A DNA stretch of 64,000 nucleotides, taken from positions 40,878 through 104,877 of the IMG/VR virus record IMGVR_UViG_3300021963_000055. The stretch is one strand, 5' to 3'. Position 1 is the stretch's first letter, and each line of letters starts with the position of its first letter. Under the pieces are notes generated by a model. That model searched no databases and had not been told where the DNA came from. It saw nothing but the letters and a program-made list of their open reading frames with translations. A program made the position numbers and the translations under genes. Of this stretch, positions 42,335 to 63,151 are shown one piece after another. Source of the stretch: a virus.

Positions 42335-42389
42335 AGTCTACCATGGATGGGGCCAGCTTGTGGCCAGCCCCGTTACAAAGGTTTACACA
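42335..42389 (-). promoter_or_regulatory. Early promoter with HLR1-like (RpaB) direct repeat
   Basis: -10 TAGACT at 42340-42335; GTTACAAA-GG-TTTACACA at 42372-42389; no TTGACA. Confidence 0.65.
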
Positions 42390-42697
42390 GGGCTGGGGCG
42401 ATCCTGGCTCCAGCGAACTAGCCTGCGGTTGCTGGCCTTGCTGTAGACTCGGTTGCCAATGGTTCGGCCATCGGCCAGCGTGATCACGCTGCGGCCAGCG
42501 GCGTCAGCAGCAGCCTGCAGAGCCTGGCGTCCCAGCTTGCGCTCCTCCTTGAGAGCAGTCTCACTGGTGGCCAGATCAAACAGCCACTGTGCCCGATGGC
42601 GGCCAACGATGACGCCATGGCGGATGGTGACCTTGGCAACAGCAACAGCCACTGCGGTGGGGATGCTGGTGCGGGTGAGGCGGTCAGAGCGGGTCAT
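42383..42697 (-). CDS. Hypothetical basic early protein
   Basis: ORF preceded by a TATAAT promoter at 42746-42741. Confidence 0.6.
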   Translation of the reverse strand: MTRSDRLTRTSIPTAVAVAVAKVTIRHGVIVGRHRAQWLFDLATSETALKEERKLGRQALQAAADAAGRSVITLADGRTIGNRVYSKASNRRLVRWSQDRPSPV

Positions 42698-42740
42698 GGT
42701 CTCAGGTGGTTGTGGGGGCTTCTCTCGCCCCCGTGTTCAA

Positions 42741-42803
42741 ATTATAGGGCATGGGTGGGGGCTGTCGATGCCCCAGACCCGAACTGTTACAAACCGAAAT
42801 AAT
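42741..42803 (-). promoter_or_regulatory. Early promoter with a degenerate HLR1-like repeat
   Basis: TCGACA-N16-TATAAT; GTTACAAA-CC-GAAATAAT at 42786-42803. Confidence 0.55.
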
Positions 42804-43561
42804 TATACTTTAGCGGCCAGAATAGCCTGGCGTTCCTTCCTGTAACCGCTGAACTTACCAGCACGGCGGCGAGCATGGACAGCTTTGCCATAGGTTGAAC
42901 CTTTAGGCTGTGTTGAGTGTACCAACAGTGCAAACGGTTTGTCACCAAAACAGTGCGAGTCGTCGTGATCAACCTCTAGCCCAATCGCTTCAGCTTCTTC
43001 ATCGTTATGCACAACTTTACTGTAGCGAGTGAACACACCTGCGTCGATATAGTGGTCGAATTTGCCACCATAACTTGCCGTCATGAAGAAGTTAGAGGGC
43101 AACTCCAAACCTACAAACAGTGGCAGGTTTTTGCTGTAGCAGTAGAACTTGAGATCAGGGTTCAGCTTTGCCACTGTGATCCAGGCATCCAGATAGGCAC
43201 CCGAGAAGAAATCACCAGACTCGTGAATCCTGACGAGTTTGCTATTCTTCTTGCGAGCATTCTGCAGGCTGTTGTTGATCAGTTCGGCTGCAGTGTTGGT
43301 TTGGATCGCCTCAACAACCAGCTGCAGATTGCGAGCCCGAGCATAGAAAGGGCCATCGTATTGTGCTTCACTAGTTGCAGCAAAACACCTAAATTGTGTT
43401 TGAGGGCCATCCTGAACTTTACGCTTGCCGTCTTCATTAACAACAGCAAACGAGAGACAGAATAGAGCGCCAGGGCAGGTTTTGCCAGCTGGCAGGCTAA
43501 AGATCAGGGTGCCCTTACCGAGCTTGGCGTTACCGTGGCTGAAGGTCAGAAGGTCAGACAT
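42803..43561 (-). CDS. GP88-like Cys-rich protein
   Basis: Motifs GNAKL, FSLPAGKTCPGA..C, CFA, RIHESGDF, FYCYSK. Confidence 0.75.
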   Translation of the reverse strand: MSDLLTFSHGNAKLGKGTLIFSLPAGKTCPGALFCLSFAVVNEDGKRKVQDGPQTQFRCFAATSEAQYDGPFYARARNLQLVVEAIQTNTAAELINNSLQNARKKNSKLVRIHESGDFFSGAYLDAWITVAKLNPDLKFYCYSKNLPLFVGLELPSNFFMTASYGGKFDHYIDAGVFTRYSKVVHNDEEAEAIGLEVDHDDSHCFGDKPFALLVHSTQPKGSTYGKAVHARRRAGKFSGYRKERQAILAAKV

Positions 43562-43587
43562 TGGTGGTTTGGGTGTGAACTGAGGTT

Positions 43588-43642
43588 AGTCTACCAGATG
43601 GGAAGGGCCAGGCTGGCTGGCCCTGTTGCAAAGCTTAATGCT
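43588..43642 (-). promoter_or_regulatory. Early promoter with HLR1-like repeat
   Basis: -10 TAGACT at 43593-43588; GTTGCAAA-GC-TTAATGCT starts at 43625 (32-nt offset). Confidence 0.55.
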
Positions 43643-43880
43643 GTGTCACCCAGTGGTCCATGGTCATGATCCAACCCTCACCGTGCCACGTATGGAAGCG
43701 ATCGGTTTTGAACTGCTCCCACTGGGCTTTGGTGATCAGATGGCCCTCAACCCATACCAGGGTCTGATCCTGCTCCCGCTCAGCTTGCTTGGCCCCAGCC
43801 CGCACCCGAAACATTTCGGCTGCAATGGTTCCCTGGCTGGCGTCAGGGCCGATTCCTGGGAGGTGCTCGGTGTTCAGCAT
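43635..43880 (-). CDS. Hypothetical early protein
   Basis: Start re-placed at MLNTEHL, downstream of the promoter at 43904-43909. Confidence 0.6.
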   Translation of the reverse strand: MLNTEHLPGIGPDASQGTIAAEMFRVRAGAKQAEREQDQTLVWVEGHLITKAQWEQFKTDRFHTWHGEGWIMTMDHWVTQH

Positions 43881-43903
43881 TGGTCCTTTGCGACTGCTCA
43901 CGA

Positions 43904-43958
43904 ATCCTACACCATCGGGTGAGCCCTGAAGCCCACCCCTGTAACAGAATGAAATAAT
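43904..43958 (-). promoter_or_regulatory. Early promoter with HLR1-like repeat
   Basis: -10 TAGGAT at 43909-43904; GTAACAGA-AT-GAAATAAT starts at 43941 (32-nt offset). Confidence 0.55.
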
Positions 43959-44152
43959 TACATTTCCAGCTCCCAGTTCTGATCTTTGTGCATATCAACC
44001 CAGAAAATCTCTTCAGGGTCAGCTATACTTGCCAGCAACATTCTGCCATCCATGTGTCGTAGGATGGTGCAATGCTCGCAGCGTTTGAGTGCATTAGCGA
44101 ACCTGTTTTTGGCTTTCTTGCTGATAGGTTTGACTGAAATGATCTGTGCCAT
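43958..44152 (-). CDS. Conserved small cyanophage protein
   Basis: VKPISKKAKNRFAN...FWVD..KD.NW. Confidence 0.7.
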   Translation of the reverse strand: MAQIISVKPISKKAKNRFANALKRCEHCTILRHMDGRMLLASIADPEEIFWVDMHKDQNWELEM

Positions 44153-44276
44153 TAGAGTAGTTTCCTCTTGAGAGATTGTAACAGAGTGAAGAACACCAGA
44201 ACAAAAAGAAGCTCGAAAGTCACAGAATGAAACAATGAAGAACTGGAAGGGGGGAATTGATCCCCCCAGAATCCTA

Positions 44277-44540
44277 TCAGATCGCTTTCAGTTCTTCAGT
44301 CTTGCGAGCATCTGCGATAGTGGAACCGATGCTTACATTCTTCAGGATCTCATCATTGTTGAGCAGATCACTGAGGAATTGAATGTAACTATCTGATGCA
44401 ATAAAGTTGTAAACTTTATCAGGATTGCTGTGATAAGTTATAAAAACATCATTGCTATCTAGGGGCATAGTGATAGATTGAATGGCGCTAGATTGCTCTT
44501 TAGTGAATTGACGATGGATGGGGGAGATTGCAACGGTCAT
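44277..44540 (-). CDS. KTSC-like small protein
   Basis: SSAIQSI...VFITYHS...VYNF...SIGS pattern; followed by a G6/C6 hairpin at 44249-44267. Confidence 0.55.
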   Translation of the reverse strand: MTVAISPIHRQFTKEQSSAIQSITMPLDSNDVFITYHSNPDKVYNFIASDSYIQFLSDLLNNDEILKNVSIGSTIADARKTEELKAI

Positions 44541-44566
44541 GATGTTTGTTCAGGTGTACGTTTAAT

Positions 44567-44621
44567 AATTTACAGGTTGGGGGCTGAGGTGTCAACCCCC
44601 TGATTGATTAGTAATACTAAT
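44567..44621 (-). promoter_or_regulatory. Sigma70 promoter with LysR/RbcR-type box
   Basis: TTGACA-N17-TAAATT; ATTAG-TAATA-CTAAT at 44607-44621. Confidence 0.75.
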
Positions 44622-44752
44622 CAGAACTCAATTTCGTCTAGAGTTGGCTCTGTAATAGTATCATCAGAGCCTGCAATCATGTCGAGAATGGTGAGAATTT
44701 CATCACCAGTCTGACCTTTCCGAAGCATCGAAACAAGTACCTCTTTAGACAT
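44621..44752 (-). CDS. Small hypothetical protein (43 aa)
   Basis: MSKEVLVSMLRKGQTGDEILTILDMIAGSDDTITEPTLDEIEF. Confidence 0.6.
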   Translation of the reverse strand: MSKEVLVSMLRKGQTGDEILTILDMIAGSDDTITEPTLDEIEF

Positions 44753-44760
44753 AATAATTC

Positions 44761-44898
44761 TCAGTAATCGTAATTAGAGTTAATAAATTGATGAAAGTTT
44801 AGTTCGCTTTCATCATCATCAGCTGCAGGAATCAGCATATCATCCTGCCAATCGTAAATCTCAGCTTCAAGATCTACGAAATCAAACGTAGTTTCCAT
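44761..44898 (-). CDS. Very acidic small protein (45 aa)
   Basis: METTFDFVDLEAEIYDWQDDMLIPAADDDESELNFHQFINSNYDY; has its own promoter. Confidence 0.6.
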   Translation of the reverse strand: METTFDFVDLEAEIYDWQDDMLIPAADDDESELNFHQFINSNYDY

Positions 44899-44922
44899 TG
44901 GTTCAGTGAAGTGAACGATTCA

Positions 44923-44977
44923 AGTATGACCTGGATTGTCTGGGATGTCAACCCTTTGAGCCATAAGCATTGCTAAT
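44923..44977 (-). promoter_or_regulatory. Sigma70 promoter with LysR/RbcR-type box
   Basis: TTGACA-N17-CATACT; ATAAG-N5-CTAAT at 44963-44977. Confidence 0.72.
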
Positions 44978-45128
44978 CTGACTGATTAGCTTTGATAAAG
45001 TTTTCTAATGTGTCCAGTTCAGTTTCATTTAAGCCTAACACATATTCTTCAATGATTTGCTCCATTAGAACATATTCATTGCTGTAAAGTTGTTCTTTAA
45101 GAGCATCAATCATCTCATCTTGTTTCAT
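44973..45128 (-). CDS. Small acidic hypothetical protein
   Basis: Start re-placed at MKQDEM because a promoter lies inside the longer ORF call. Confidence 0.6.
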   Translation of the reverse strand: MKQDEMIDALKEQLYSNEYVLMEQIIEEYVLGLNETELDTLENFIKANQSD

Positions 45129-45158
45129 TGATTTGGAATGAAAGAACTGTACCACGTC

Positions 45159-45213
45159 AGAATAGTTGATTGTGTGCATGATGTCAAGTAGGTGAATGAT
45201 AAGGATTACTTAT
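45159..45213 (-). promoter_or_regulatory. Sigma70 promoter with LysR/RbcR-type box
   Basis: TTGACA-N17-TATTCT; ATAAG-N5-CTTAT at 45199-45213. Confidence 0.72.
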
Positions 45214-45376
45214 TAATAACTAATGCACCATATTTGTTTAATTTACCTGCACACGGTTTGTTATCATATAGCCCAAAGTAATACTTACCAATACTAATAC
45301 CAAATTGTTCGTCACCTTGCTTAGCCTTGGTGTTAGCACCAATGTAGAAGATTCGGGAGTCAAGTGAGAATTTCAT
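45206..45376 (-). CDS. Small hypothetical protein (56 aa)
   Basis: MKFSLDSRIFYIGANTKAKQGDEQFGISIGKYYFGLY...; has its own promoter. Confidence 0.55.
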   Translation of the reverse strand: MKFSLDSRIFYIGANTKAKQGDEQFGISIGKYYFGLYDNKPCAGKLNKYGALVINK

Positions 45377-45400
45377 GGTTGTTCATGTGTGAACATAGTC

Positions 45401-45454
45401 ACTATAGAGGTTTCTCAGAGGGTTGTCAAGGGTTCTTTGATTAGTGTATCTTAT
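45401..45454 (-). promoter_or_regulatory. Sigma70 promoter with LysR/RbcR-type box
   Basis: TTGACA-N17-TATAGT; ATTAG-N5-CTTAT at 45440-45454. Confidence 0.75.
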
Positions 45455-45509
45455 ATGGTTAATAATTTCTAAGTATACTTAATAATAAGTTCTGAACCCT
45501 GACATGGTT

Positions 45510-45563
45510 ATTCTAGCAGGTTTTGGGTGTGTTGTCAAGTGTATATTGATAATAATTTCTGAT
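45510..45563 (-). promoter_or_regulatory. Sigma70 promoter with a degenerate LysR box
   Basis: TTGACA-N17-TAGAAT; ATAAT-N5-CTGAT at 45549-45563. Confidence 0.68.
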
Positions 45564-45640
45564 CGGTGGCCTCCGAGTGATTTGGAATGCTTATATTAGT
45601 AATACTTATCGGTGGCCTCGGAGTGATTTGGAATCCTTAT
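45549..45640. repeat. Tandem 46-nt duplication with a near-identical 33-nt core
   Basis: ATCGGTGGCCTC(C/G)GAGTGATTTGGAAT(G/C)CTTAT at 45562-45594 and 45608-45640. Confidence 0.9.
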
Positions 45641-45661
45641 GAGTTTTTTGGGCCTGGGGGC

Positions 45662-45690
45662 TTGACAAAATGGCCGAGTGATGATATAAT
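45662..45690 (+). promoter_or_regulatory. Perfect-consensus sigma70 promoter on the non-coding strand
   Basis: TTGACA-N17-TATAAT. Confidence 0.8.
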
Positions 45691-45759
45691 GCTCGCCAAG
45701 ACTGCTGCACCCCCGCACATTTCAGATACTTTCTCTGACACACTCGGACACATACAGTA

Positions 45760-45875
45760 TATACTTAATAATTTCACACATATACCCTATACACTTAATA
45801 ATTTCTCTCTTTCAGTCTCTCTCTATACAACACAAACATATATTTTTTATTACATTTATTATATACTTAATAATT
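45760..45875. repeat. AT-rich TA(T/C)ACTTAATAAT repeats
   Basis: Copies start at 45760, 45790 and 45862, with another at 45474. Confidence 0.8.
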
Positions 45876-46443
45876 ACACAAAAAACGACTGATTGTTTAC
45901 ATATACCTGCGGACTATACATTACATAAACTAACTTTAGATTCTTTTGGAAGTCTGTTTCATAGTGAGATCTCTTATGACGATCAATCACTATATTAGTA
46001 TTCTTTACAAAGAATCCATCTTCTCTTATTGGTACATATTGTGCATCTACTTCCCAGATCATTACTCTCTGATGTGTAAGTAATACATGATAATATAAAT
46101 CAATTTTCTCTGTTGATAGATTCTGTTGTGTATTCTGGAATGTTAGCTGGAATCTATCTTTAATCTCACCATCTGTATTGGTGGTATCCTGGCGGAGTAC
46201 AACTTTTTTGATTTGTGCATTGAGCCAGATCTTAGGTTGTTTCTCTACAAGTAAATCTACACCTGTATCTACTTTTGGTTCTGCTACATTGATTTGATTC
46301 ATGGTAAGATAGCCCATGACGAAGCTTTGGCACGAGATACCTGAATAGTTTGGATCCGCCAGGATAACCTTCTCTTCTTGCAATAAAGGAGGCATTGTTG
46401 GTGGTATAAAGCTGGGTGCGATCAGATCAGTTACTTTATTCAT
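45874..46443 (-). CDS. PD-(D/E)XK-like nuclease
   Basis: PKVDTGVDLLVE...NAQIKK and IDLY pattern. Confidence 0.55.
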   Translation of the reverse strand: MNKVTDLIAPSFIPPTMPPLLQEEKVILADPNYSGISCQSFVMGYLTMNQINVAEPKVDTGVDLLVEKQPKIWLNAQIKKVVLRQDTTNTDGEIKDRFQLTFQNTQQNLSTEKIDLYYHVLLTHQRVMIWEVDAQYVPIREDGFFVKNTNIVIDRHKRSHYETDFQKNLKLVYVMYSPQVYVNNQSFFV

Positions 46444-46587
46444 TATAGTGCAAAAAAGTAGTGTTTTTTGGTTGTAAATACTTGGCTTTGAGGTGATTTA
46501 GAGATTGCTTCCTGGCTTTGATTTTGGCTTTTGATTGACCTTTGGTGGTCTTTGGTTTGTTAGAGTGATGTTGCCAGTTTGGTGTGT

Positions 46588-47040
46588 TCATGGTAGTTTG
46601 ATTTCTTGCTTTGGTTGAAAGAGATTTGTGGAATAACATTTCCACTGATTCTTGCGAGTGAACAGATACACATACTCTTCACCACCTAACTTACCAGAAA
46701 CAAACTTATGAAATGTAGTATGCTGAACTTCGATTTCCTCACCACGCTCTGTATAATAGAGTGGCTGCGGAATACGATCATTCTCATACATCAAATAGCC
46801 CGCATCATCACAAATATATTCACCTTTTTCATCACGAAGAGAAGAACCAGAATTCCAGGTTTCACGAGTGCGAAGGGAAGAAATAGCTCCACCATCAATC
46901 AGATTGACGACTTGATCTCTGATGGAGTAATGTTCCTTCAGAATCTTAGCATGGTGCTCAGGATAACCATCCCAATGGCAGTACACTGAAACAACAGAGC
47001 GATCCTTGAGTTGAATGCCGATGCGTGAGCGGGTAGCCAT
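46588..47040 (-). CDS. Conserved cyanophage early protein
   Basis: MATRSRIG...SVYCHWDGYP, EEYVYLF...W. Confidence 0.8.
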   Translation of the reverse strand: MATRSRIGIQLKDRSVVSVYCHWDGYPEHHAKILKEHYSIRDQVVNLIDGGAISSLRTRETWNSGSSLRDEKGEYICDDAGYLMYENDRIPQPLYYTERGEEIEVQHTTFHKFVSGKLGGEEYVYLFTRKNQWKCYSTNLFQPKQEIKLP

Positions 47041-47062
47041 TGGAGTGGTTTGAACTGTGTTC

Positions 47063-47120
47063 AGTATAGAGGTGGAATCAGCCCTGAGGACTGGGCTGTG
47101 TGCCAGCTTGAGAACTGGCC
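47063..47120 (-). promoter_or_regulatory. Early promoter with a GTGCCAG...CTGGCC dyad
   Basis: -10 TATACT at 47068-47063; dyad starts at 47100; GC hairpin in place of a -35. Confidence 0.6.
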
Positions 47121-47202
47121 TTGGATGTCTTGCTGTAGGTATGGAGTGAACCGAAGATCTTTACAGTCTTTGGCTTGGGATTGTTGTGATAAGGTTTGTT
47201 GC

Positions 47203-47469
47203 TCATAGTGATTGTACTTCTTCTAGAATGTTGTTAATGTCTTGTTCATCACGATGACCTAATACATCATCAGTGATTGGTGTATCATAGGTGATTTCCC
47301 AATTATCTTGGGTTCCTTTGAGAATGGCTACTTCATACAGATCATCTTCAAAACCATAACTACCAGGAAAACGAACTACAGATACACCATAACCATTAGG
47401 AAAGAAATGTGTAGCTTGTACACCATCTTGAATCTTGTGTTTTTCAAACTTTAGATCAGTGAAGTTCAT
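47203..47469 (-). CDS. Conserved phage hypothetical protein
   Basis: FPNGYGVSVV..GSYG...LYEVAIL...YDTPITDDVLGH. Confidence 0.75.
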   Translation of the reverse strand: MNFTDLKFEKHKIQDGVQATHFFPNGYGVSVVRFPGSYGFEDDLYEVAILKGTQDNWEITYDTPITDDVLGHRDEQDINNILEEVQSL

Positions 47470-47624
47470 TGACAATGATGATGAGTTGGGTTTTTGGTGC
47501 AAAATAGTTTGTGAACTGCTCTGTATTCAGTATCAATCAGTTTACCATTGTCACGAAGAATAGCAAGTGTATTCCATCCAACAATGATACCAATTCCACA
47601 GATGATAACTGGTAGGCACTTCAT
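47466..47624 (-). CDS. Small membrane-anchored protein (52 aa)
   Basis: MKCLPVIICGIGIIVGWNTLAIL...; ATGA overlaps on both sides. Confidence 0.6.
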   Translation of the reverse strand: MKCLPVIICGIGIIVGWNTLAILRDNGKLIDTEYRAVHKLFCTKNPTHHHCQ

Positions 47625-47806
47625 GCGTTGTATCCTTCCGCTTTCAAAATAGCACGACGAGCTTCATATGCTTGAAACTGAGTAGCAAATTCAGCAATCT
47701 TTTGAAATGAATGCCGACGATACAATCCCCATCGAGTTGTACCATAAATTTGGCAAATTTGATAAGGATTGTCGATACCGAGAGGATAGGGTTTCATGGT
47801 AGTCAC
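47621..47806 (-). CDS. Hypothetical protein
   Basis: ORF in a coupled gene chain. Confidence 0.6.
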   Translation of the reverse strand: MTTMKPYPLGIDNPYQICQIYGTTRWGLYRRHSFQKIAEFATQFQAYEARRAILKAEGYNA

Positions 47807-47964
47807 ACCGAAAGAGAAACTTCAATTTGTTTGATGTTAAGTCCACAAAGTTGTTCATGGACACGTTTGCAAATCAAATCTGTTGCAGACTTTGCTTTAG
47901 ACTTTTCATACCAGATGGTACAAAGACCATCATAGGTTTCAACACGAACTTTGTAGTTTTTCAT
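47803..47964 (-). CDS. Hypothetical protein (53 aa)
   Basis: MKNYKVRVETYDGLCTIWYEKSK...; fills the gap in the chain. Confidence 0.6.
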   Translation of the reverse strand: MKNYKVRVETYDGLCTIWYEKSKAKSATDLICKRVHEQLCGLNIKQIEVSLSV

Positions 47965-47966
47965 GT

Positions 47967-48236
47967 TCAGTCAGGAAGAATACAGAATGAAGCACAGAAC
48001 TGTCGAACCCATTCTAGTGTGGCACGGTAGCCTCTGGGATTCGACATCACCATACTAGCACCTTTTCGGGGATTGTGGGCGATGGCAACATACTTGTAAA
48101 CATCAGGGGATTCTTCAATCTCTTCAATCCACATCTGGTTCACGTCACCATCTTGCCAATCCCAGCGACTGGTGGTGTAATGGTACACTTCACGGAATCG
48201 TGGTTTGACTGGTGTGAGTGTGATGATGTCGTTCAT
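47967..48236 (-). CDS. Hypothetical protein
   Basis: ORF in a coupled gene chain. Confidence 0.65.
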   Translation of the reverse strand: MNDIITLTPVKPRFREVYHYTTSRWDWQDGDVNQMWIEEIEESPDVYKYVAIAHNPRKGASMVMSNPRGYRATLEWVRQFCASFCILPD

Positions 48237-48237
48237 T

Positions 48238-48513
48238 TCAAACAGTCTCCTGATAGATTTTCATACCCTTACGGAGACGGATTGTATCATCAATCATTTC
48301 ACCAACCTGTTCGTAAATGTAGGAAGAACCTCCTACATCACAGAGAACATCTTCAGTGAGTTCTTTAGAGAAACGCACTTCGTCGCAGTTTTCACCAACG
48401 ATCTCAAATACATCATCTTGAGTGAATACAAACGCAGCACAACCTGCGTTCTCACCTTGACGCTCAATCATTTGGTTGATTGAGTCACGAAGTTCAGAAA
48501 GTGTGCGGTACAT
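48238..48513 (-). CDS. Hypothetical protein
   Basis: MYRTLSELRDSINQMIERQGE; own promoter upstream. Confidence 0.7.
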   Translation of the reverse strand: MYRTLSELRDSINQMIERQGENAGCAAFVFTQDDVFEIVGENCDEVRFSKELTEDVLCDVGGSSYIYEQVGEMIDDTIRLRKGMKIYQETV

Positions 48514-48539
48514 GGGTTGGTTCCCTTGACTACCTCAGT

Positions 48540-48593
48540 AGGTTAACCGATCTGCGGGGGCATGTCAACCTTTGATTCATTAGCCTTCTTAAT
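48540..48593 (-). promoter_or_regulatory. Sigma70 promoter with LysR/RbcR-type box
   Basis: TTGACA-N17-TAACCT; ATTAG-N5-TTAAT at 48579-48593. Confidence 0.65.
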
Positions 48594-49083
48594 ACGTGCG
48601 GAACGTTTCCGCATTTCATACTGATGGTTCCGTGTGAAAGCATAAAGAATCACAACAAGTGCTCCAGCTAGTCCAGCAACAGCTGCGATAGCATTGACTT
48701 CAACAGGGAATGTAGTGGTTTCAATCATTGAGAATACCTTCAAGATGGTCAAGACAGAGTGTAACATAGGTTTGATCTTCTTCGATCAGTTCACGATACT
48801 CTGCATAGAGAGCATCAGCAATTCTGAAGTTCTTGTGCATTGTTTTGTAGGTCTTAGCCTTTACTGCACGATTATTGAACTTCTCCATTCTCTCCATAGC
48901 ATTTGCATGTGAGAGATAGATTGAATAATCAGCTTCGTCCATTATGGTTGGGATCTCCTTTACCTTCAAGTGATTTTGCAAGAAGTTCTGCATACTTCTC
49001 AAGATATGCTGTATCATAGGCTGCTAGATGGTTCTTTGTCAATTCTTTGTGCATGTTGTTGAGGTTAATCCAATCTTCTGTGT

Positions 49084-53920: not shown

Positions 53921-53925
53921 TAAAA

Positions 53926-55218: not shown

Positions 55219-55419
55219 CTGGTGTAAAGAATGTGTCTAGTTCAGAAAACAGTTGTTGTTTCTTTTGTTTTTGTTTGATTGTTTGAATACTTGCATTGGT
55301 TGGTTTGTATCTTTCGATATGTTTTTGAAGATGCTCTTCACACATAAACCAACAAACTCGTTCATCCTTTCCATCGGTGTATTCTAGCCTGTATGGAAAT
55401 CCTTCGTATGGAAAATCAC

Positions 55420-55785
55420 TCATCTAAGTATTTCAATGTGTGTAATCTTACCTAATTTAAAACATATACTACATCGTGGCCATGCTTCCCAAGTATCGTT
55501 TGGGTTTTGTTCTGGATAAACCTCAATACAATCAGTAATATATTGAGGTCGAACAATCCCATGATTGCCATTTGGAATCCATTGAAATGTGGCCCAAGGT
55601 GGAAGTGATTCGTCATCAACTTCTACAAAGTCTGCAGTCATGCACTCATCAATCTCAAATAGTTCACCTGCAGGGCTAATCCAATATTCAAACATAGAAC
55701 ATTTAAGTCCTTTGGTTTGTAGTGTATGATTATTGAAATGTTCGTTGATAGGATATGAGCAACGAACACGGTCAAACAGTCCCAT
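55420..55785 (-). CDS. Conserved phage hypothetical protein
   Basis: MGLFD.V.C...QTKGL.C.M..YWI...G.L. Confidence 0.7.
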   Translation of the reverse strand: MGLFDRVRCSYPINEHFNNHTLQTKGLKCSMFEYWISPAGELFEIDECMTADFVEVDDESLPPWATFQWIPNGNHGIVRPQYITDCIEVYPEQNPNDTWEAWPRCSICFKLGKITHIEILR

Positions 55786-56258
55786 TAGAAATCACCTTTA
55801 CCTTGGGAGACATCAAAAGTAAATATACCACGCTCCTGCCACATTGTCAAGACCCGTTTTCGATCATCAAATACTGCAAAGATTTCATACTGTTCTTCGA
55901 TCTGATCAGCAATCTCTGCCTTAACAATAGCATCATCACGATGGTCTTGATACTTTCTCATATAGAGAGCATTATAATCATCAGTCGTGATATTGTTATC
56001 TTCAAACCATTTCAGAGTTACATCACGATAATCATCAGATCGACCACTCACAAAGAAAATAGCATAGAAATACTTCAATGCATGAAACATTGCAAGCACT
56101 TGATTTACAGGTTTATCATTAGCAATACCACGATTCCATGCGTCCCAGTTACGAGGCTTGGTTGCAACAAACTGTCTACGATGTGAAACATCACACAGAG
56201 TACCATCCAGATCAAAGACGATACACTTTTCTTTAGGAGTATTCGTAGAGGAATCCAT
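55785..56258 (-). CDS. HAD 3'-phosphatase, the phosphatase half of T4 Pnkp (PseT)
   Basis: Motifs FDLDGT, VSGR, LYMR...D.RDD..VK, FDDR, C-terminal GDF. Confidence 0.9.
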   Translation of the reverse strand: MDSSTNTPKEKCIVFDLDGTLCDVSHRRQFVATKPRNWDAWNRGIANDKPVNQVLAMFHALKYFYAIFFVSGRSDDYRDVTLKWFEDNNITTDDYNALYMRKYQDHRDDAIVKAEIADQIEEQYEIFAVFDDRKRVLTMWQERGIFTFDVSQGKGDF

Positions 56259-56613
56259 GGTTGGTAGTGTAGTGAACGTGAGTAATGCCAGCTTCTTTAA
56301 GTGCTAGTTGGCAAATAGGACATGGCCGAGCCATTCGTAATTTACCCTGTGGATTGATCCTAGCGACAATGATAGTATCTACTTCATCACGACACTTAAC
56401 AAGTGCAGCAATCTCTGCATGAAGATAGATTTTTTCTTTGAGACCCACTCGTTCAGCGAACTTAGCTTGAAGTGGATGAGACTTAGTTTCCAGGTTAGTT
56501 GCAGCTACAATCACCTTGTTTTTATTGAGTAGCAAAGCGCCAACTTGTTTCTTTGATGGGGAAGACTTTGCAGTTGCAATAGCCTGGTCAAACACCGAGT
56601 CAGAAATCATCAT
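56233..56613 (-). CDS. Zn-dependent nucleotide/nucleic-acid deaminase
   Basis: HAE and RPCPIC motifs, VGALL strand. Confidence 0.9.
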   Translation of the reverse strand: MMISDSVFDQAIATAKSSPSKKQVGALLLNKNKVIVAATNLETKSHPLQAKFAERVGLKEKIYLHAEIAALVKCRDEVDTIIVARINPQGKLRMARPCPICQLALKEAGITHVHYTTNHGFLYEYS

Positions 56614-57110
56614 GCTACCTGCAATTTCAGATGCGACCCATCATGAGTCATAATAACATCAAAACCTTCGTCTTCAGTTGGCATTTCAAATTGGTGATAC
56701 ATGCGAGTAATAACAGAACGTGGAATGAATTTGTTTGCTCGTTGAGAATTGCGAATGATAGCTTCTTCAAGAGTGATAGGAAGAACCACTGCAGTCTTGG
56801 TATATTCTTCTGGAATCTTCTTTAGTTTCTTGATGCGAGACTTTCTAGAGACATTAGTTTGGTCCCAGATGATAGACTTGCCTCGTTGGATAGCAAGTTC
56901 TAGGTCTTGATACATGCGTGTGGTAGCTTCATCAATAACTTCATCGAAGACTTCATTGTAAGTCTTGTTATTTGCTTTGGCATATTCTTCGATGTAATTA
57001 TCTGTGGAAAGAATTACATATTCATCAAACACATCTGCATTTTCAATTCCCCTGCGAATGTAAGTAGACTTGCCTGCACAAGGAATGCCACACATCATAA
57101 TCAGTTCCAT
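56610..57110 (-). CDS. P-loop polynucleotide kinase (AAA_33), the kinase half of Pnkp
   Basis: Motifs CGIPCAGKST, LSTD, WDQTN, RNSQR, PT.DEGFD. Confidence 0.88.
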   Translation of the reverse strand: MELIMMCGIPCAGKSTYIRRGIENADVFDEYVILSTDNYIEEYAKANNKTYNEVFDEVIDEATTRMYQDLELAIQRGKSIIWDQTNVSRKSRIKKLKKIPEEYTKTAVVLPITLEEAIIRNSQRANKFIPRSVITRMYHQFEMPTEDEGFDVIMTHDGSHLKLQVA

Positions 57111-58270
57111 GAAATACCTCCGAACATCCAACGGGAATCGTTTAATTTGGTTTGTGAAGTGAGAGATTTCTCGATTGAATCAATCAAGAGTTGTTTACAT
57201 TCTTTGCCTTGTTTCATGCCAAACATGAATGGGCGATGAATGGGAAGAAGCATTCGGTTTACAAACTCAACGGCAAACTCCTTTTTATCTGGATACATCT
57301 TATCACCACCTTCAAAGATGGTAGTAAGGTCTTGTGCCACCTCATCAACTGCACTCCAAAACTCAGACTGGAACTTTCGCAGTCGAGCAGAATCATCTTC
57401 AGTGAGCAGTGGAATCATATCATCTACTGCATCATTGAGGATAACTTGAATGATATTCTTTTCTGAGTTAATTTGTTCTTTAGAGCGATGTCGAAGAATA
57501 TATTCATCTGCTTTAATTTTGACCATATGACCATCATCAAAACGGATAACTACACCTTCACCATCATCCCATTTGCGAATGTGGTCAACAACCTTAGTAA
57601 TGTCGGTTTCATCACCAGCAATTGCTTTCACAAAAGGAATACCATAATGTTCCGCAAGTTCTACCATGTTAAAGTATGGTAGATAGTTACCCTTAGTGAG
57701 ATTACGAATACCAGTGAGAATGAGTTGGTCTTCTGGATAGTCAACTACAATACGATTCTTACGAGAACACCATTCAAATATAGGTGTCATTCCACCATCA
57801 ATCATGGCACGAATAAAAGTGTTGTATTGTGGCTTATCACCAATGAATACTTCTGCATTCATTGCAACATCAGTAATACCTGCTTTTGTACCAAGACGAA
57901 ACCCTTCTGGAGTTGGAATAGGACGAATCATCGAACCATCTAGCTTCTCCAGAACTACATGTGAAGCACTTAAGTTGAGTTTATCAATCTGAGTTTCTTC
58001 TCGTTCACCAACATTGAAGAACTTATGATATGGACGAGATATTAGTTTGCCAGTAGCATTATCAAAGATAAGACCACGACATTCACGACGCATCCACATG
58101 TTGTAATGTGTACGATGGCGAATGAGTGAGAATGTATCTTCAAATGCAACCATGTAGTTGATAACAGTGTACCAACCTTTGTCCATTACTTTGAACTCTG
58201 GCTTGTCTTCAATTTGCAGAAGAACATCATCAATGTGATTGATGTCAGGAAATGTGTAGTTCATCTTCAA
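57101..58270 (-). CDS. rnlA: RNA ligase 1 (T4 RnlA-like)
   Basis: RECRGLIF, RPYHKFFN, motif I EKLDGS, FEW, EGVVI, MVKIK. Confidence 0.93.
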   Translation of the reverse strand: MKMNYTFPDINHIDDVLLQIEDKPEFKVMDKGWYTVINYMVAFEDTFSLIRHRTHYNMWMRRECRGLIFDNATGKLISRPYHKFFNVGEREETQIDKLNLSASHVVLEKLDGSMIRPIPTPEGFRLGTKAGITDVAMNAEVFIGDKPQYNTFIRAMIDGGMTPIFEWCSRKNRIVVDYPEDQLILTGIRNLTKGNYLPYFNMVELAEHYGIPFVKAIAGDETDITKVVDHIRKWDDGEGVVIRFDDGHMVKIKADEYILRHRSKEQINSEKNIIQVILNDAVDDMIPLLTEDDSARLRKFQSEFWSAVDEVAQDLTTIFEGGDKMYPDKKEFAVEFVNRMLLPIHRPFMFGMKQGKECKQLLIDSIEKSLTSQTKLNDSRWMFGGISWN

Positions 58271-58430
58271 AAGAAAAGTATTCGTAGATCTGTGACATTA
58301 CAGCCTCATCAATACGGTCCATGATGGCACTGGGGGCAGGATTCTCTACATGTTTGTGTGCGAGGTGCCAACCACGACGCACACCTTCTTCAATAGCTTG
58401 TTCTAGAATAACACGAGTTTTAACTTTCAT
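58245..58430 (-). CDS. Hypothetical protein
   Basis: ORF overlapping the RNA ligase start. Confidence 0.65.
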   Translation of the reverse strand: MKVKTRVILEQAIEEGVRRGWHLAHKHVENPAPSAIMDRIDEAVMSQIYEYFSFEDELHIS

Positions 58431-58499
58431 CGGTAAATAGCTTTAAAGAAAAATACAATACCACCTACAAGCATAATGAAGGTGGCGAGCATGGAAAGA

Positions 58500-58871
58500 T
58501 CAACAATGTCCATCTGATTCAGTATCCCAAGGAGCAGGTCGAGAGAGTAGTTGTCGTAGAAATGGGGTTGGTGGATCGGGGTTATTGATCTTCTCCATCA
58601 TAGAGTCATAAGCCTCTTCTGTCAAGTAGATGGTCTCTGGAATCTCATCAGGAGAACTTATACCCATCATAGCTTCCTCTGTTCCTGGGGCATTAATGAA
58701 CGCATCATACTCCATAGTCCACCAACCATTGTTTAATTCATACCAGAAATCTGCATACAAATGCCTATCATCAAGACGATAACCTTGATGACAGATCATA
58801 CGATACCAATACCAGAATGGAGTGCGGATAATCGGTTTAAATCCGATTATCCATTTGTGTATAAACGTCAT
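58500..58871 (-). CDS. Hypothetical protein with a DUF1778-like C-terminal segment
   Basis: IYLTEEAYDSMMEKINNPDPP...LRQLL..PAPW. Confidence 0.55.
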   Translation of the reverse strand: MTFIHKWIIGFKPIIRTPFWYWYRMICHQGYRLDDRHLYADFWYELNNGWWTMEYDAFINAPGTEEAMMGISSPDEIPETIYLTEEAYDSMMEKINNPDPPTPFLRQLLSRPAPWDTESDGHC

Positions 58872-59425
58872 AATGCATCATCAATCCAATAAAAACCAAG
58901 ACAGGTTCTCATAAAGAACCTCACCAAACGATTAGGTTTATCAGGCATATAATACCTCAAATATCGTCGATTTCCAATCGTATAATAACCTTCGTGTTTG
59001 TTTCCCTGTTTGATTACAAAAGAGGTTCCATAAGAATCAGCACTCAATCCAGTTCCCATAACAAATTTTACTGGTTGTGGAAAATGTCCATTATCCTTTG
59101 CGTATTCAAATCTTTCAAAAATCTTATCAAACTCGTATTTGTATCTTTTTTCGGCAACTACTTTGGAATACTCAAACTTTTCTTTTGTTGTCTCAATCAG
59201 TTTATCAATCTTCTCATCAAACTCTTGTTGGATTTCATCCAGAGTTTTGGGTTTCTCTGGAATGATAAGGAGATGTTTGACTTTATCAAAGTTTTCATTA
59301 GTTTCAGATACTTTCAATCCAATAGCACAAAATACTGCCTCTACATCTTTGATAGAAGTTAGTTTAGTGGTATCTACATCATACCATTTATGTCCAATGT
59401 ATAAAGTTCCTTGTGGTTTAATCAT
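58868..59425 (-). CDS. Hypothetical protein, paralogue of 63142-63714
   Basis: Shared QEFDEKIDK and SFVIK..GYYT.GN..LRYY..DKPN. Confidence 0.75.
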   Translation of the reverse strand: MIKPQGTLYIGHKWYDVDTTKLTSIKDVEAVFCAIGLKVSETNENFDKVKHLLIIPEKPKTLDEIQQEFDEKIDKLIETTKEKFEYSKVVAEKRYKYEFDKIFERFEYAKDNGHFPQPVKFVMGTGLSADSYGTSFVIKQGNKHEGYYTIGNRRYLRYYMPDKPNRLVRFFMRTCLGFYWIDDAL

Positions 59426-59585
59426 CGGATTCCAGTATCAAAGAGTTTTTTCAGTTCATTATACACCAACAACAATTCATGGTCAATAGTTAAACGACCA
59501 ACATCTTTTTGAGTTCTTAGAAATTCATAGAGTTCTAATGCTTGTGGCTCTGTGAGTTTGAGTTTATACTGTTTTTGTACTTCAA

Positions 59586-59888
59586 TCATTTCAAAACCTC
59601 ATCAACATCAACAGCATCATAATCACTGATACCAAGTTTAGATCTTACAAAATCTGTAAAATCAGTGGCATCACATTCATAAACACAATGTCCACCATTA
59701 TTATCACTTTGAGTATAATTGGTGAAGTAATCGTCAAATACTACCATAATAGCAAGAGCACGAGATTGGTCATGTTTTGTGATTGCAGTATGTGGATGTG
59801 CCACAATCTTTGTGATACACTCAAATAACTCTTCACGAGTATATGAGAATGCTTTTGCTTCTTGATTTAATTTAAGTGGATTAGTCAT
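59586..59888 (-). CDS. Hypothetical protein
   Basis: ORF in the gene chain. Confidence 0.65.
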   Translation of the reverse strand: MTNPLKLNQEAKAFSYTREELFECITKIVAHPHTAITKHDQSRALAIMVVFDDYFTNYTQSDNNGGHCVYECDATDFTDFVRSKLGISDYDAVDVDEVLK

Positions 59889-59890
59889 AG

Positions 59891-60643
59891 TTAATTAAAT
59901 GTTTTTACATATTTTACTAAATTAATATAATTTTTACACTCTGCATCATGCTGGTAATATTCTTCTAATTTTTGCTTAGAATTTTTACTTTTTGTGCCAA
60001 GCATTCTTACAAGTCCACCAAAATTAGACATATGACTTATTTTTAATGGTTTATTGTTTTCTGGTCCTGTAATTCGTTCCCTAAATCCAGAAGCATTAAT
60101 CGGTTCATTATTGATGAAACTTCCTCCCCTAAGAATATGTAAATCGTCTCGCATCTTTGCTATATTTTTTGATAAAAAATATTCTGATTTTGTTACATAT
60201 GGACTCATAGAAGTATTATTAATATTCCACTTCCAAGCAGATACAAATAATAAATCAGTATTCAACAATTCTGATTGAATAGCATCAAAATGTGACTTAG
60301 ACTCATGAGAATTTACACATAAGGTTTTAACTTCGATATTACATACAAAATTTTCTTTATCGTCAGTAATGTAAAAATCATTATATTGATTTTTACATAT
60401 CCATTTTAAGCTATGCCCAAAAGATTCTAATTCTTTTTTCATATAGTATCCCCACATAGCTTCAAAAAGTATACCAAATCTAGTAGAATGGCCATAGTTT
60501 ATTTCTGCAGAATCAACCAAAAAAGTTTCAGAAAAAAATTGATTTAATTCTTCGACAACCTTAAAATTTAAACTCTCTAATGTTTCTTTTATCTGTTCAG
60601 TCACCTTTCCATTCCTCATAACGTGTGTTAATCTTACCATCAT
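59891..60643 (-). CDS. Restriction-endonuclease-like PD-(D/E)XK protein
   Basis: G.LFE...QYNDFYI...NIEVKT; much more AT-rich than its neighbours. The true start may be the GTG near 60604. Confidence 0.55.
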   Translation of the reverse strand: MMVRLTHVMRNGKVTEQIKETLESLNFKVVEELNQFFSETFLVDSAEINYGHSTRFGILFEAMWGYYMKKELESFGHSLKWICKNQYNDFYITDDKENFVCNIEVKTLCVNSHESKSHFDAIQSELLNTDLLFVSAWKWNINNTSMSPYVTKSEYFLSKNIAKMRDDLHILRGGSFINNEPINASGFRERITGPENNKPLKISHMSNFGGLVRMLGTKSKNSKQKLEEYYQHDAECKNYINLVKYVKTFN

Positions 60644-60787
60644 TCAGGAAAACATTCAAGTGCCCTGTGTTACCATTCTCAAAATAGAATGCCATCCACA
60701 CATGATGCCCTTCATCCATCACCTCATAGTGATAGCTTTTGATATTATCCAGGAGGAATTCATCAGGATTGTAGAGTTCTTTATCGG

Positions 60788-61432
60788 TCATGAGAAGTTG
60801 TAGTGAACACGAGTGTGGAAATCTTTGTAGCAATTTTTGTTGGAAAGTTTCATCATCACAGGAGGAATGTAATAAGCACATTCAGTGAAGAAATCTTCTT
60901 TACTGAGGAATCTGAGACCATGGAGATACCAAGTGCCAAACTGTTCATGGAATGCTCTCACTGCACGATATTGCTGAGAGTTAATAGGTACATACCTATT
61001 CTCATCACTAAAGTCATCACCATATGGGGTTGCCTGTGTCATCATAAGACAAACAGTATTTCCTTCTCCAGTTGCCCCATATTCAGAAAGCATATACACC
61101 CAGTATTCATCTACTGGGAACACATCACGACCATACTTCTCCTCATATTCTTTCATACAAGCATCAGCAACCAGTTGAAAGTTTTCTTTCTTCTTTGCTT
61201 GTAGTTCTTCAATCAATTGTTCATGTTCAATCTTACGAAGTTCTTTAAGTGCTTCTGAATATTTGCCAATACCATCAATGGCAATTCTCACAGCATCGAT
61301 TCGTTCCTCCTTTTCAATATCAGCAAGTTGTTGGAGAGCATCACCATTCTCATCATAGAGTTTTTCAACTGCTTTCATTGCTGCTTCTCGCCTTGCTGCT
61401 TCTTCAAGCATTTCTTCATGTGTCATGACCAT
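60788..61432 (-). CDS. Hypothetical protein (coiled coil plus conserved C-terminal domain)
   Basis: MTHEEMLEEA N-terminus; EYGATGEG.TVCLM; HYNFS C-terminus. Confidence 0.65.
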   Translation of the reverse strand: MVMTHEEMLEEAARREAAMKAVEKLYDENGDALQQLADIEKEERIDAVRIAIDGIGKYSEALKELRKIEHEQLIEELQAKKKENFQLVADACMKEYEEKYGRDVFPVDEYWVYMLSEYGATGEGNTVCLMMTQATPYGDDFSDENRYVPINSQQYRAVRAFHEQFGTWYLHGLRFLSKEDFFTECAYYIPPVMMKLSNKNCYKDFHTRVHYNFS

Positions 61433-61701
61433 TTCTCCACAGTAGATTTCCAGAAATCATAAGTCATATCTTGTGACCCTGCCATTCTAGCAACTACTTC
61501 GCCATCTGTCAAGGCTACAAGTGTTGGTGTTGCAACAACTCGACAAGTCTTAGCAAATTCGGTCCATTCGCCATTCTCTTTAGCATTGGTGATAGTAACC
61601 ACCTTTTCCCAACCATCTACTTTCTTTAGTTGTGTTTCAGCATACATGCAAGGTCTGCAACCTTCCTGTACAAATAGATGAATTTGAGTCATGGTTGCCA
61701 A
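61423..61701 (-). CDS. Thioredoxin/glutaredoxin-like protein
   Basis: CRPC active site and cis-Pro motif ATPTLV. Confidence 0.85.
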   Translation of the reverse strand: MATMTQIHLFVQEGCRPCMYAETQLKKVDGWEKVVTITNAKENGEWTEFAKTCRVVATPTLVALTDGEVVARMAGSQDMTYDFWKSTVEKWS

Positions 61702-61867
61702 GCATAAGATTTCAAGAGTTCGTTGTCCTTTTCAAGTTGTTCAATCCTTTCATTCATTTCTTGCAATAGTGCAATCAAAGCAAGATTATCAATGGTTTCT
61801 GTGTCTTGTCCATTCTCCATATCAATATAATGGGAATAGAAGAGTTCTTGTTTAAAGTTTCGGTCAG

Positions 61868-62350
61868 TCATCGTAGTTTCCTCTTGATTTTATTGAGACA
61901 ATCGTTGAATCCTTCTACTGTGCATTCAACATAAGCATTTTGAGAACCAGCAGAAGATTGTTCTTTCGGCAACCATGCTTCGATACGATCAACGAGAGTA
62001 TCAACACATATTCCCATATCATCATTGCTATTGGTTGTGAATACATCTTCCCACCAATCATAAATCAAATCAGTGAGAGTTTGTGTTTCTTTCTTCTTCT
62101 CAATCTCCTCAAGTAGTGCTACTTTCTTTTCAAGTACTTTGATTTCTGCTTTTACTTGTTCAATTTCAGTCATTTTACGAATGTGTAGTTTTGTTTTAGG
62201 TGCTACTGTTCCCAATCTACCAGTATCTCGAACTTTTATGGTAGTTTCTCCACTTGGGGATGTGAATTTGAGGTCGGTCATTTTATCTTTGTTAAGAGGT
62301 CCATAAACTTGTTCCATTAGTTGTTGGAAATCTTTCTCAATACCAAACAT
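61868..62350 (-). CDS. Hypothetical protein, related to 63711-63968
   Basis: Shared E.WLP.E...G.NDC..K.K motif. Confidence 0.65.
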   Translation of the reverse strand: MFGIEKDFQQLMEQVYGPLNKDKMTDLKFTSPSGETTIKVRDTGRLGTVAPKTKLHIRKMTEIEQVKAEIKVLEKKVALLEEIEKKKETQTLTDLIYDWWEDVFTTNSNDDMGICVDTLVDRIEAWLPKEQSSAGSQNAYVECTVEGFNDCLNKIKRKLR

Positions 62351-62595
62351 TACAGGTTCTCCAACTCATCACTCCAAGGATAATGATAATCTACCTCAAT
62401 ACTTTCTAAAAGTGTGCGGGCAAAGGTAATTTCACCATAATCAGAACCATCTTCAAAAATATCCCAACTATGGTGTGGATATTCATAATCTGGATTTAGA
62501 TTATAACAAGTTGGTTGTTCTGCGTAATTTTTGAGAACTTTGAGAAGATGTGTGAGTTTTTGTTCGTCAGTCATCGTATTCAGTGATAAAAGCAA
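62350..62595 (-). CDS. Hypothetical protein
   Basis: ORF in the gene chain. Confidence 0.6.
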   Translation of the reverse strand: MLLSLNTMTDEQKLTHLLKVLKNYAEQPTCYNLNPDYEYPHHSWDIFEDGSDYGEITFARTLLESIEVDYHYPWSDELENL

Positions 62596-62845
62596 ATGCT
62601 AAACAAAACCTTCGTTGTTGAAAATCTACACTCATAAGAGAATTACCAAAGAAAGAGAACAAGATGTTAATACCACCAGAAGAATGAATGACACCACCAG
62701 GAGTTTCAAAACTCACCCAGAGTAGTGATATGTCGTTGATAATACCAAACTGCCAGGTGTGAGATACTTCACCATCTTGATAAGTTTGTTTGGAGTGCTG
62801 GTAGAGTTTCATAATCAATCCTCCACAATCAAACAATAACGACAC
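62567..62845 (-). CDS. Hypothetical protein
   Basis: ORF in the gene chain. Confidence 0.6.
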   Translation of the reverse strand: MSLLFDCGGLIMKLYQHSKQTYQDGEVSHTWQFGIINDISLLWVSFETPGGVIHSSGGINILFSFFGNSLMSVDFQQRRFCLAFAFITEYDD

Positions 62846-63072
62846 TGGAAAGAAAACACATCTTTATCGTTGGTTCTCTTTACTCCATTTTCGTCCCAAG
62901 AATACACAACTTCAATCCAAGGGTCTGTGTCTCCATAAGTATTGAAACCTTCAACAGTTACAATACCACCAGAAGAACCAATCCAACGAGAACCAACTTG
63001 GATTTCGTGTGCCTTGAAGAAATGACCGACTATAAATTTGTGTCCGTTTTGGATTTTAGTTTCGTAGTCCAT
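62815..63072 (-). CDS. Hypothetical protein
   Basis: ORF with its own promoter. Confidence 0.7.
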   Translation of the reverse strand: MDYETKIQNGHKFIVGHFFKAHEIQVGSRWIGSSGGIVTVEGFNTYGDTDPWIEVVYSWDENGVKRTNDKDVFSFQCRYCLIVED

Positions 63073-63094
63073 CGGTTTGGTTGCTTATGAAGTT

Positions 63095-63151
63095 ATTATA
63101 AGGCATCACAGGGGGATTTGGAGCACCCCTGTGTCAGTTCTTCAAGTGTCC
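63095..63151 (-). promoter_or_regulatory. Early promoter with a GTGTCAG...GTGTCC dyad
   Basis: -10 TATAAT at 63100-63095; dyad starts at 63131; GC hairpin at 63107-63133. Confidence 0.6.

Follow-up and report, generated by a model that had tools for sequence, protein, structure and literature searches.

Promoter cassettes with exchangeable, host-like upstream boxes in a small-gene region of a T4-like cyanophage

What starts the transcription of the small genes that T4-like cyanophages carry beside their baseplate genes, and what reads the sequence boxes upstream of those promoters? The question is raised by the window examined here, the last 64 kb (64,000 nucleotides) of a 104,877-base viral contig (IMGVR_UViG_3300021963_000055), which DNA and protein matches identify as a T4-like cyanomyovirus (Kyanoviridae) near Synechococcus phage S-PM2. 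Between 42 and 64 kb the window holds about 50 minus-strand open reading frames (ORFs), most of them small. A preliminary description had sorted the promoters in front of them into three classes (A, B and C) by their upstream boxes and had proposed an undescribed system in which separate gene sets answer to different host regulators. All the boxes it named are present on the minus strand where it had placed them. From the intergenic sequences and their exact coordinates, we find about 15 minus-strand cassettes of one common layout, with a fixed geometry, conservation over many phages and boxes identical in sequence to host sites. In our judgement the small-gene region is probably punctuated by cassettes of the promoter-early stem-loop (PeSL) type whose upstream boxes copy host cis-elements. 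That host regulators bind these boxes, and so set the strength, timing or conditions of transcription, is plausible from the sequences.

One cassette frame with exchangeable boxes

Each cassette begins at the stop codon of the preceding ORF, followed by the box at about -45 to -66, a stem-loop (in most cases a GC hairpin that covers the -35 region), a -10 hexamer of the form TAnnnT and a start region with an AGTTCAC-type leader. Hairpins were found in cassettes A1-A4, B1 and C1-C3 (numbered by class and catalogued below). The combination TTGACA-N17-TAnnnT is present in six class B cassettes and in C2, and absent from A1-A4, C1 and C3. The box had been said to begin 31-35 nt upstream of the -10 hexamer; instead, it is the end of the box that lies 28-34 nt from the hexamer, with two outliers. 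Scanning the window against Rfam returned no family; the cassettes are therefore not among the catalogued RNAs.

The same frame recurs in relatives. We retrieved 80 loci encoding homologues of GP88, the protein whose gene follows cassette A3, and found that they share a box, a GC stem-loop of varying sequence, a TAnnnT -10, about 6 nt and an AGTTCAC or AGTCAAC leader. Some contigs have an A-type box in front of these homologues and others a B-type box, the commonest box being GTGACA-N10-TGGCACA; at least two box classes occur together in 50 of 83 related loci. Within the cassette frame one box type can stand in for another before orthologous GP88 genes. The idea of three boxes occupying a single slot is upheld to that extent, but the number three is less secure, as classes A and C may be one family.

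Because selection on the box had to be avoided, a second promoter set was defined by the -10 hexamer and leader only (344 non-redundant promoters from 763 kb of relatives). Of 113 occurrences of the class C core in this set, 88 begin at -38 to -36, and the class A core occupies the same place. Composite searches for box, spacing and TAnnnT returned 42 matches for class B (30-36 nt spacing) against none in a reversed-sequence control, 459 against 102 for class C, and 102 against 85 for class A. By this comparison classes B and C are solid, and class A, as a loose pattern, is not. Among 110 related cassettes, a folding energy of -8 kcal/mol or lower is reached by 76% of the spacers, compared with 17% of shuffled spacers. 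The stem sequences are not conserved, and TTGAC stands at -35 in only 4%.

Could the boxes lack a regulatory reader altogether and mark the joints at which mobile PeSL-type cassettes recombine, or act in the RNA as 3'-end elements of the gene before them? The preceding stop codon is often overlapped by a box, near-identical cassettes recur within a contig (seven in L076, for example) and PeSLs mediate shuffling, all of which such a reading would accommodate. It does not sit well with a distance from box to -10 that is fixed within +/-1 nt, with half-site letters that are conserved and do not covary while the adjacent hairpin does, or with boxes identical to host promoter elements. We consider it highly improbable.

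As to an undescribed system, the cassettes are PeSL-like, and their principle is already known. PeSLs have been described in the T4-type phages RB49/phi1, T4/PST and KVP40/nt-1 (Arbiol et al. 2010, PMC2839356; Comeau et al. 2014, PMC4122927). Like them, the present cassettes are compact units of promoter plus stem-loop between small non-essential ORFs of hyperplastic regions, occur in many copies per genome, and differ from one another where they flank orthologous genes. Two differences stand out. In PeSLs the upstream region is AT-rich and the -35 is close to consensus, whereas the class A and C promoters have a specific palindromic box and no -35; and here, unlike in PeSLs, the stem-loop lies over the -35 region and T-runs are rare. 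S-PM2 has been reported to lack dense PeSLs, yet it holds 12 cassettes of the TGGCACA type.

The class B dyad and the host carboxysome operon

The class B boxes, described as AT(T/A)AG-N5-CT(A/T)AT dyads accompanied by TTGACA, proved robust in both number and placement. The 104.9-kb genome contains eight copies of the strict form ATWAG-N5-CTWAT, where second-order Markov simulations predict 0.8. With no selection on spacing, five of the strict dyads stand 10-11 nt upstream of TTGACA, four of them inside the window; a looser copy (48593..48579) and a copy matching at 9/10 positions (45563..45549) likewise stand 10-11 nt upstream of TTGACA-N17-TAnnnT, and the window thus contains six class B promoters. 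Two more lie upstream of the window, at genome positions 32550 and 34732; in one of them TCCATCCCA and TGGGATGGA form a hairpin whose loop holds TTGACA. When viral contigs were scanned for the class B composite, most hits were single chance matches, and several contigs held 2-7 composites with diverse intervening sequence, one being a 172-kb close relative.

A corresponding dyad is found in the hosts. Picocyanobacterial genomes were gathered through a 16S primer scan, and in all of the first five GAT(C/A)AG-N5-CTTAT(C) lies upstream of csoS1-rbcL, about 42 nt before a CTTGAC -35. This cso dyad stands 125-130 nt upstream of the csoS1 start in 33/33 host-family genomes, with invariant half-sites and a variable centre. 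The pattern has 2-3 copies per high-GC genome of about 3 Mb, or 11 in five genomes against 1 for a control pattern. A second conserved host copy of GATCAG-N5-CTTAT sits between convergent genes and was rejected as a promoter site on account of that location. A host-genome scan with ATTAG-N5-CTAAT was uninformative, yielding many chance matches in low-GC Prochlorococcus and one recurrent site inside a large coding gene.

Phage and host cso dyads have the same invariant letters (AT.AG-N5-CT.AT) together with a flanking G and C. For RbcR, a CbbR-type LysR regulator of Synechocystis, the reported motif is ATTA(G/A)-N5-(C/T)TAAT, with T-N11-A, and activation is reported from about -90 (Bolay et al. 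2022, as cited in PMC13249358). Measured against this consensus, B1 is an exact match; the other class B copies match AT.AG-N5-CT.AT with A or T as the third letter. The likeness to RbcR sites consists in a T-N11-A dyad with the same invariant letters, which the host carboxysome operon also has, but most phage copies read ATAAG/CTTAT, and the likeness is one of sequence. The class B dyad matches the host carboxysome-operon site, with an RbcR-type regulator as the candidate reader. The carbon link that had been suggested through RbcR is retained for the host csoS1-rbcL dyad and the fit to the RbcR consensus, but not for position: in the phage the dyad precedes the -35 by 10-11 nt and has its centre at about -54, which differs from the activating position reported for RbcR and from the host cso dyad at about -85.

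Classes C and A, the CGRE1 half-site and the candidate readers

In this genome class C, previously defined by GTGNCAG dyads, comprises three heterogeneous sites (47.1, 50.7 and 63.1 kb), with 3 strict composite matches against 0.5 expected; the 47.1-kb site is a good cassette of TGGCACA, hairpin and TATACT. The evidence for the class from relatives is overwhelming, as the placement of its core shows, but the three local sites are less uniform than had been supposed. In relatives class C is a 24-bp palindrome, TGTGACAGTT-N4-AACTGGCACA, and a matrix from 110 instances reads tGTGACAGTT-N4-AAsTGGCACA, the proximal half being strongest. Allowing up to 3 mismatches, the full palindrome occurs 6 times in S-PM2, 3 times in Syn9 and 8 times in S-SRM01, and a control pattern not at all. 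S-PM2 also holds 12 TGGCACA-N28-32-TAnnnT sites (control pattern, 0), seven of them within its 5-23 kb small-ORF region.

This distribution would suit a reading in which the classes are temporal programmes, the C/A palindrome promoters, which have no -35, being the early-gene element and class B, with its full TTGACA, host-like middle promoters, with boxes that set timing only. Class C is probably the early-gene element of Doron et al. 2016, who reportedly found the early genes of T4-like cyanophages under a novel element and the middle genes under host-like promoters. The element is reported to be conserved upstream of early genes in these phages, and the palindrome found here does occur in Syn9; the class B dyad on host-like promoters and the correspondences with host sites are not known to be part of that account. 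The occurrence of the palindrome in Syn9, S-PM2 and S-SRM01 and its concentration in the S-PM2 small-ORF region both favour timing. However, this reading leaves the strictly placed class B dyad, identical to a host operator, unexplained, and A/C and B boxes before orthologous GP88 genes in different phages would be odd if class set the time of expression. We give it nearly even chances; it is largely compatible with copied host elements.

Three other interpretations of the core were rejected. If TGGCACA were a displaced -35 put in register by cruciform extrusion, removal of the hairpin would leave about 12-13 nt, not 17. A sigma-54 promoter (TGGCAC-N5-TTGC) has no -12 element here, and cyanobacteria are not known to have sigma-54. 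The spacing does not fit NtcA (GTA-N8-TAC) or CRP-type (TGTGA-N6-TCACA) sites.

The class C arrangement also occurs in hosts. GTGACA-N9-11-TGGCACA is present in 42/201 host-family genomes, with 45 matches against 2 for the reversed pattern, and most of these represent one orthologous N9 site that lies close before a small conserved ORF. In host Cyanobiaceae genomes (L445:1501-1831; orthologues L436, L438-L454) this box reads GTGACAGT-N6-nCTGGCACA and directly precedes an ORF of about 75-99 amino acids with the core YRLVD..G.PHPVLDDLYESLDAAW...IGVEVST.SG.WRTLR.PG., which lies downstream of a FAD monooxygenase gene. The ORF has no Pfam or NCBIfam match, and no homologue of its product was found in the phage sets. 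A second host group, with N10 spacing, reads TGTGACAGGTGAATTAGTGGCACA and is kept about 430 nt upstream of 16S in five Synechococcus genomes (L493-L501). A TACCTT hexamer 32 nt downstream of it lines up with the -10 in the rRNA promoters of Prochlorococcus and of freshwater hosts. In the freshwater hosts G050, G148 and G096 the rRNA promoters have no class C box. At the G050 rRNA promoters (L505/L506) the 5' arm of a CTTGCC/GGCAAG hairpin is made up by the inferred -35, TTGCCA; host promoters, too, can thus have a stem-loop over the -35.

Which host factor might recognize such a box? The upstream regions of host Yfr2 genes, taken as Rfam Cyano-1 (RF01701), carry AACTGKCAC-(n)-GTGMCAGTT, fitting the description of CGRE1, an element of Yfr2 promoters in marine picocyanobacteria that is bound by PMM1637, a PlmA-type GntR regulator (Lambrecht et al. 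2018, PMC6191309). The phage class C matrix and the host Yfr2 upstream regions share one and the same half-site of 9-10 bp, AACTGKCAC / GTGMCAGTT, and both elements are located upstream of the -10. The halves are arranged differently. In CGRE1 they stand head-to-head around a centre of 0-2 nt, the element being 21-22 nt long and starting at -55 to -57 (PMC6191309), whereas the phage box, GTGMCAGTT-N4-AACTGKCAC at about -66 to -43, is everted with a 4-nt spacer, as are the rRNA boxes. The third factor that had been postulated for class C thus acquires a half-site with a known binder, also found upstream of host rRNA operons, but in an everted order. The everted box at five Synechococcus rRNA operons suggests PlmA-type control of rRNA transcription.

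These host occurrences also bear on the idea that a phage-encoded DNA-binding protein, either an activator or an early-to-middle switch, reads the boxes in place of host factors. Phage regulators typically have palindromic sites of fixed geometry in many copies per genome, and a small DNA-binding protein is annotated in the S-SRM01 small-ORF region. Yet the same sites are kept at host promoters in genomes without the phage, Pfam detected no helix-turn-helix or other DNA-binding family in 30 ORFs of the 42-64 kb region, and a phage factor could not act on the first transcribed genes. A phage reader is very unlikely on this evidence.

The class A boxes had been described as HLR1-like direct repeats that may couple a set of early genes to light and redox state through host RpaB; as genuine HLR1 sites they would do so for the genes of the GC-rich island. 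We took the HLR1 consensus as two (G/T)TTACA(T/A)(T/A) direct repeats 2 nt apart. The bottom strand of A1, GTTACAAAGGTTTACACA, scores 15/16, the top match in the 104.9-kb genome; it occupies roughly -59 to -42, near the reported activating window, and HLR1 motifs have been reported in cyanophage genomes. The remaining boxes do not follow. A2 and A5 reach 13/16, A3 and A4 fall below 13, and sites at or above 13/16 are common in this AT-rich genome (150 observed, 111 expected). The four promoters of the GC-rich island at 42-44 kb have a GC hairpin between box and -10 and no -35, and in three of them TGYWACR begins exactly 37 nt before the -10 (45 nt in the fourth). In relatives only the hairpin-proximal TGT(A/T)AC(G/A) is conserved, the distal repeat is not, and the conserved core falls exactly at the class C proximal position, one or two letters from the class C half-site core. 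L136 even has a hybrid in which a class C distal half is joined to a TGTTACA proximal half. For these reasons class A is probably a degenerate class C half-site, which we favour over RpaB; an RpaB site we regard as unlikely, A1 remaining a candidate. From the shared position and similar cores (TGnnACA), classes A and C may be one family. A scan of viral contigs with TTGTAAC-N22-36-TGGTAGACT gave single matches only, as expected by chance, so class A is not established in that way.

Taken as PeSL-type cassettes with copied host elements, 42-63 kb would be a hyperplastic small-ORF region in which each small gene or gene group is headed by one such cassette. The stem-loop over the -35 region would end or insulate the transcript of the upstream small gene, the TAnnnT -10 would be read by host RNA polymerase, and the upstream box, through a host factor, would supply what a -35 or UP element gives elsewhere. 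Class B would be a copy of the LysR-type dyad of the host carboxysome-RuBisCO operon, set nearer, by about three turns of the helix, to a promoter with a full TTGACA, with an RbcR/CbbR-type regulator as candidate reader. Class C, and probably class A as its degenerate form, would use the CGRE1 half-site at promoters without a -35, everted as upstream of host rRNA operons, with a PlmA-type GntR regulator as candidate reader.

Several observations weigh against this explanation. Class B at about -54 occupies neither the position of the host dyad (about -85) nor the activating position of about -90 reported for RbcR, and the left half reads ATCAG in most hosts but ATAAG or ATTAG in the phage. The class C half-sites stand in the opposite order to CGRE1 with a centre about 8 bp further upstream, so one dimer could not bind both arrangements alike. 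The full palindrome was not found in this contig at up to 3 mismatches, and the transcription start at the host rRNA promoter was placed by alignment alone. A T-run follows the hairpin in only 3% of related cassettes, so that a terminator function is no more than putative. A more specific proposal would have the carboxysome LysR-type operator copied onto a block of strong sigma-70 promoters, either tying phage genes to the inorganic-carbon status of the host or titrating the activator away from the host operon and so contributing to viral shutdown of CO2 fixation; with the PlmA-type sites this would form a modular switchboard that reads host physiology. We hold this to be rather doubtful.

Known cyanophage boxes for host regulators (NtcA, PhoB, HLR1) embody the same principle, host transcription factor sites in phage promoters, but involve other factors and sites; here several box types are swapped in one fixed frame. 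The palindrome class has probably been published already. The class B dyad and its identity with a conserved host carboxysome-operon operator appear new and form the newest part; also apparently new are the presence of an everted PlmA-type box at host rRNA promoters and the demonstrated exchange of box types in one frame before orthologous genes. The cassettes offer concrete, testable candidates for how T4-like cyanophages start transcription without the Alt, Mod, MotA and AsiA of T4. PlmA-type GntR and RbcR-type LysR regulators would link early phage expression to the nitrogen/light and carbon state of the host, and through the class B match infection might also disturb the expression of carboxysome and RuBisCO. 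Should the everted box at host rRNA operons prove real, the PlmA regulon would be wider than is known. As a practical matter, the cassettes could serve as compact promoter parts for picocyanobacteria.

The individual cassettes and their surroundings

Cassettes A1-A4 lie in a GC island at 42.0-44.0 kb (55.6% GC, in a genome of 30-40%). Besides the GP88-family gene (PF17338) the island contains four small ORFs, each headed by a class A cassette, and it is closed at 42060..42046 by the dyad ATAAGCGGCCCTTAT plus a GC-rich tract. All cassettes described here are on the minus strand. A1 (42335..42387) has the box TGTAAACCTTTGTAACGG at 42387..42370, a GC hairpin and the -10 TAGACT at 42340..42335, with TGTAACG beginning 37 nt before the -10, and precedes the ORF 42241..41984. 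A2 (42741..42800), with box ATTTCGGTTTGTAACAG, hairpin and -10 TATAAT at 42746..42741, precedes the ORF 42697..42383; it counts as an outlier because its core begins 45 nt before the -10. A3 (43588..43637) combines the box TAAGCTTTGCAACAG, the hairpin GGGCCAG-CCAGC-CTGGCCC, the -10 TAGACT and the leader AGTTCAC in front of the GP88 gene (43561..42803); its orthologous cassette is kept in the related loci L123 and L124. A4 (43904..43955) has box ATTTCATTCTGTTACAGG, a hairpin and the -10 TAGGAT before the ORF 43880..43635, its TGTTACA beginning 37 nt before the -10. The geometry of A5 (44175..44233), upstream of the ORF 44152..43958, is unlike that of A1-A4: it has two HLR1-like boxes, GTTTCATTCTGTGACTTT and TCTTCACTCTGTTACAAT, the second of which overlaps the TACAAT -10.

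Class B follows immediately. In B1 (44567..44621) the dyad ATTAGTATTACTAAT is separated by 11 nt from TTGACA, which lies in the loop of a GGGGG/CCCCC hairpin, and TAAATT follows after 17 nt; near-identical cassettes occur in L025, L048, L121 and L122. The 17-nt spacer is kept throughout the class. B2 (44923..44977) has dyad ATTAGCAATGCTTAT, 11 nt, TTGACA and CATACT; B3 (45159..45213) has ATAAGTAATCCTTAT, 11 nt, TTGACA and TATTCT; and B4 (45401..45454) has ATAAGATACACTAAT, 10 nt, TTGACA and TATAGT. B5 (45510..45609) contains an orphan dyad, ATAAGTATTACTAAT (45609..45595), within a 46-nt tandem repeat, in addition to the 9/10 dyad noted above, ATCAGAAATTATTAT, which stands 10 nt upstream of TTGACA-17-TAGAAT. 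The looser dyad of B6 (48540..48593), ATTAAGAAGGCTAAT, is followed by 10 nt, TTGACA and TAACCT.

Among the class C sites, C1 (47063..47108) reads CCAGTT-N4-AGCTGGCACA, with the hairpin CAGCCC/GGGCTG, the -10 TATACT and the leader GTTCAA; its TGGCACA begins 37 nt before the -10. C2 (50716..50762) is a normal sigma-70 type promoter, in which CTGTCAC is a hairpin arm pairing with the TTGACA -35: the 5' arm is GGGCTGTCA, the 3' arm holds the -35 (TTGACAGCCC), TATTGT follows after 17 nt, and TGTCAC begins 36 nt before the -10. C3 (63095..63137) consists of a GACACTTGAAGAACTGACACAGGGG hairpin followed by TATAAT and is a degenerate orthologue of the S-PM2 cassettes at 8590, 9870 and 11364.

The small-ORF stretch adjoins giant structural/baseplate genes, an arrangement also seen in the S-PM2 and S-SRM01 small-ORF regions, and is syntenic with the region beside the baseplate genes of S-PM2. 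Three further features lie among or beside the class B cassettes. On the plus strand at 45444-45880, an AT-rich unit, TATA(T/C)ACTTAATAATTTC, occurs in five copies; at 45559-45640, two 46-nt tandem units each contain dyad half-sites; and at 45662-45690 a perfect plus-strand TTGACA-N17-TATAAT is opposed to all local genes, with no credible ORF behind it. The recognisable genes between 42 and 64 kb encode the GP88-family protein, a helicase, a metallophosphatase and the products of an Rnl1/kinase/deaminase/phosphatase cluster. In this cluster (55785-58264) four overlapping genes specify a T4 Rnl1-type RNA ligase, a P-loop kinase, a 126-amino-acid cytidine/dCMP-type deaminase and a PNKP-type HAD phosphatase, and together they look like an RNA-repair module carrying an inserted deaminase.

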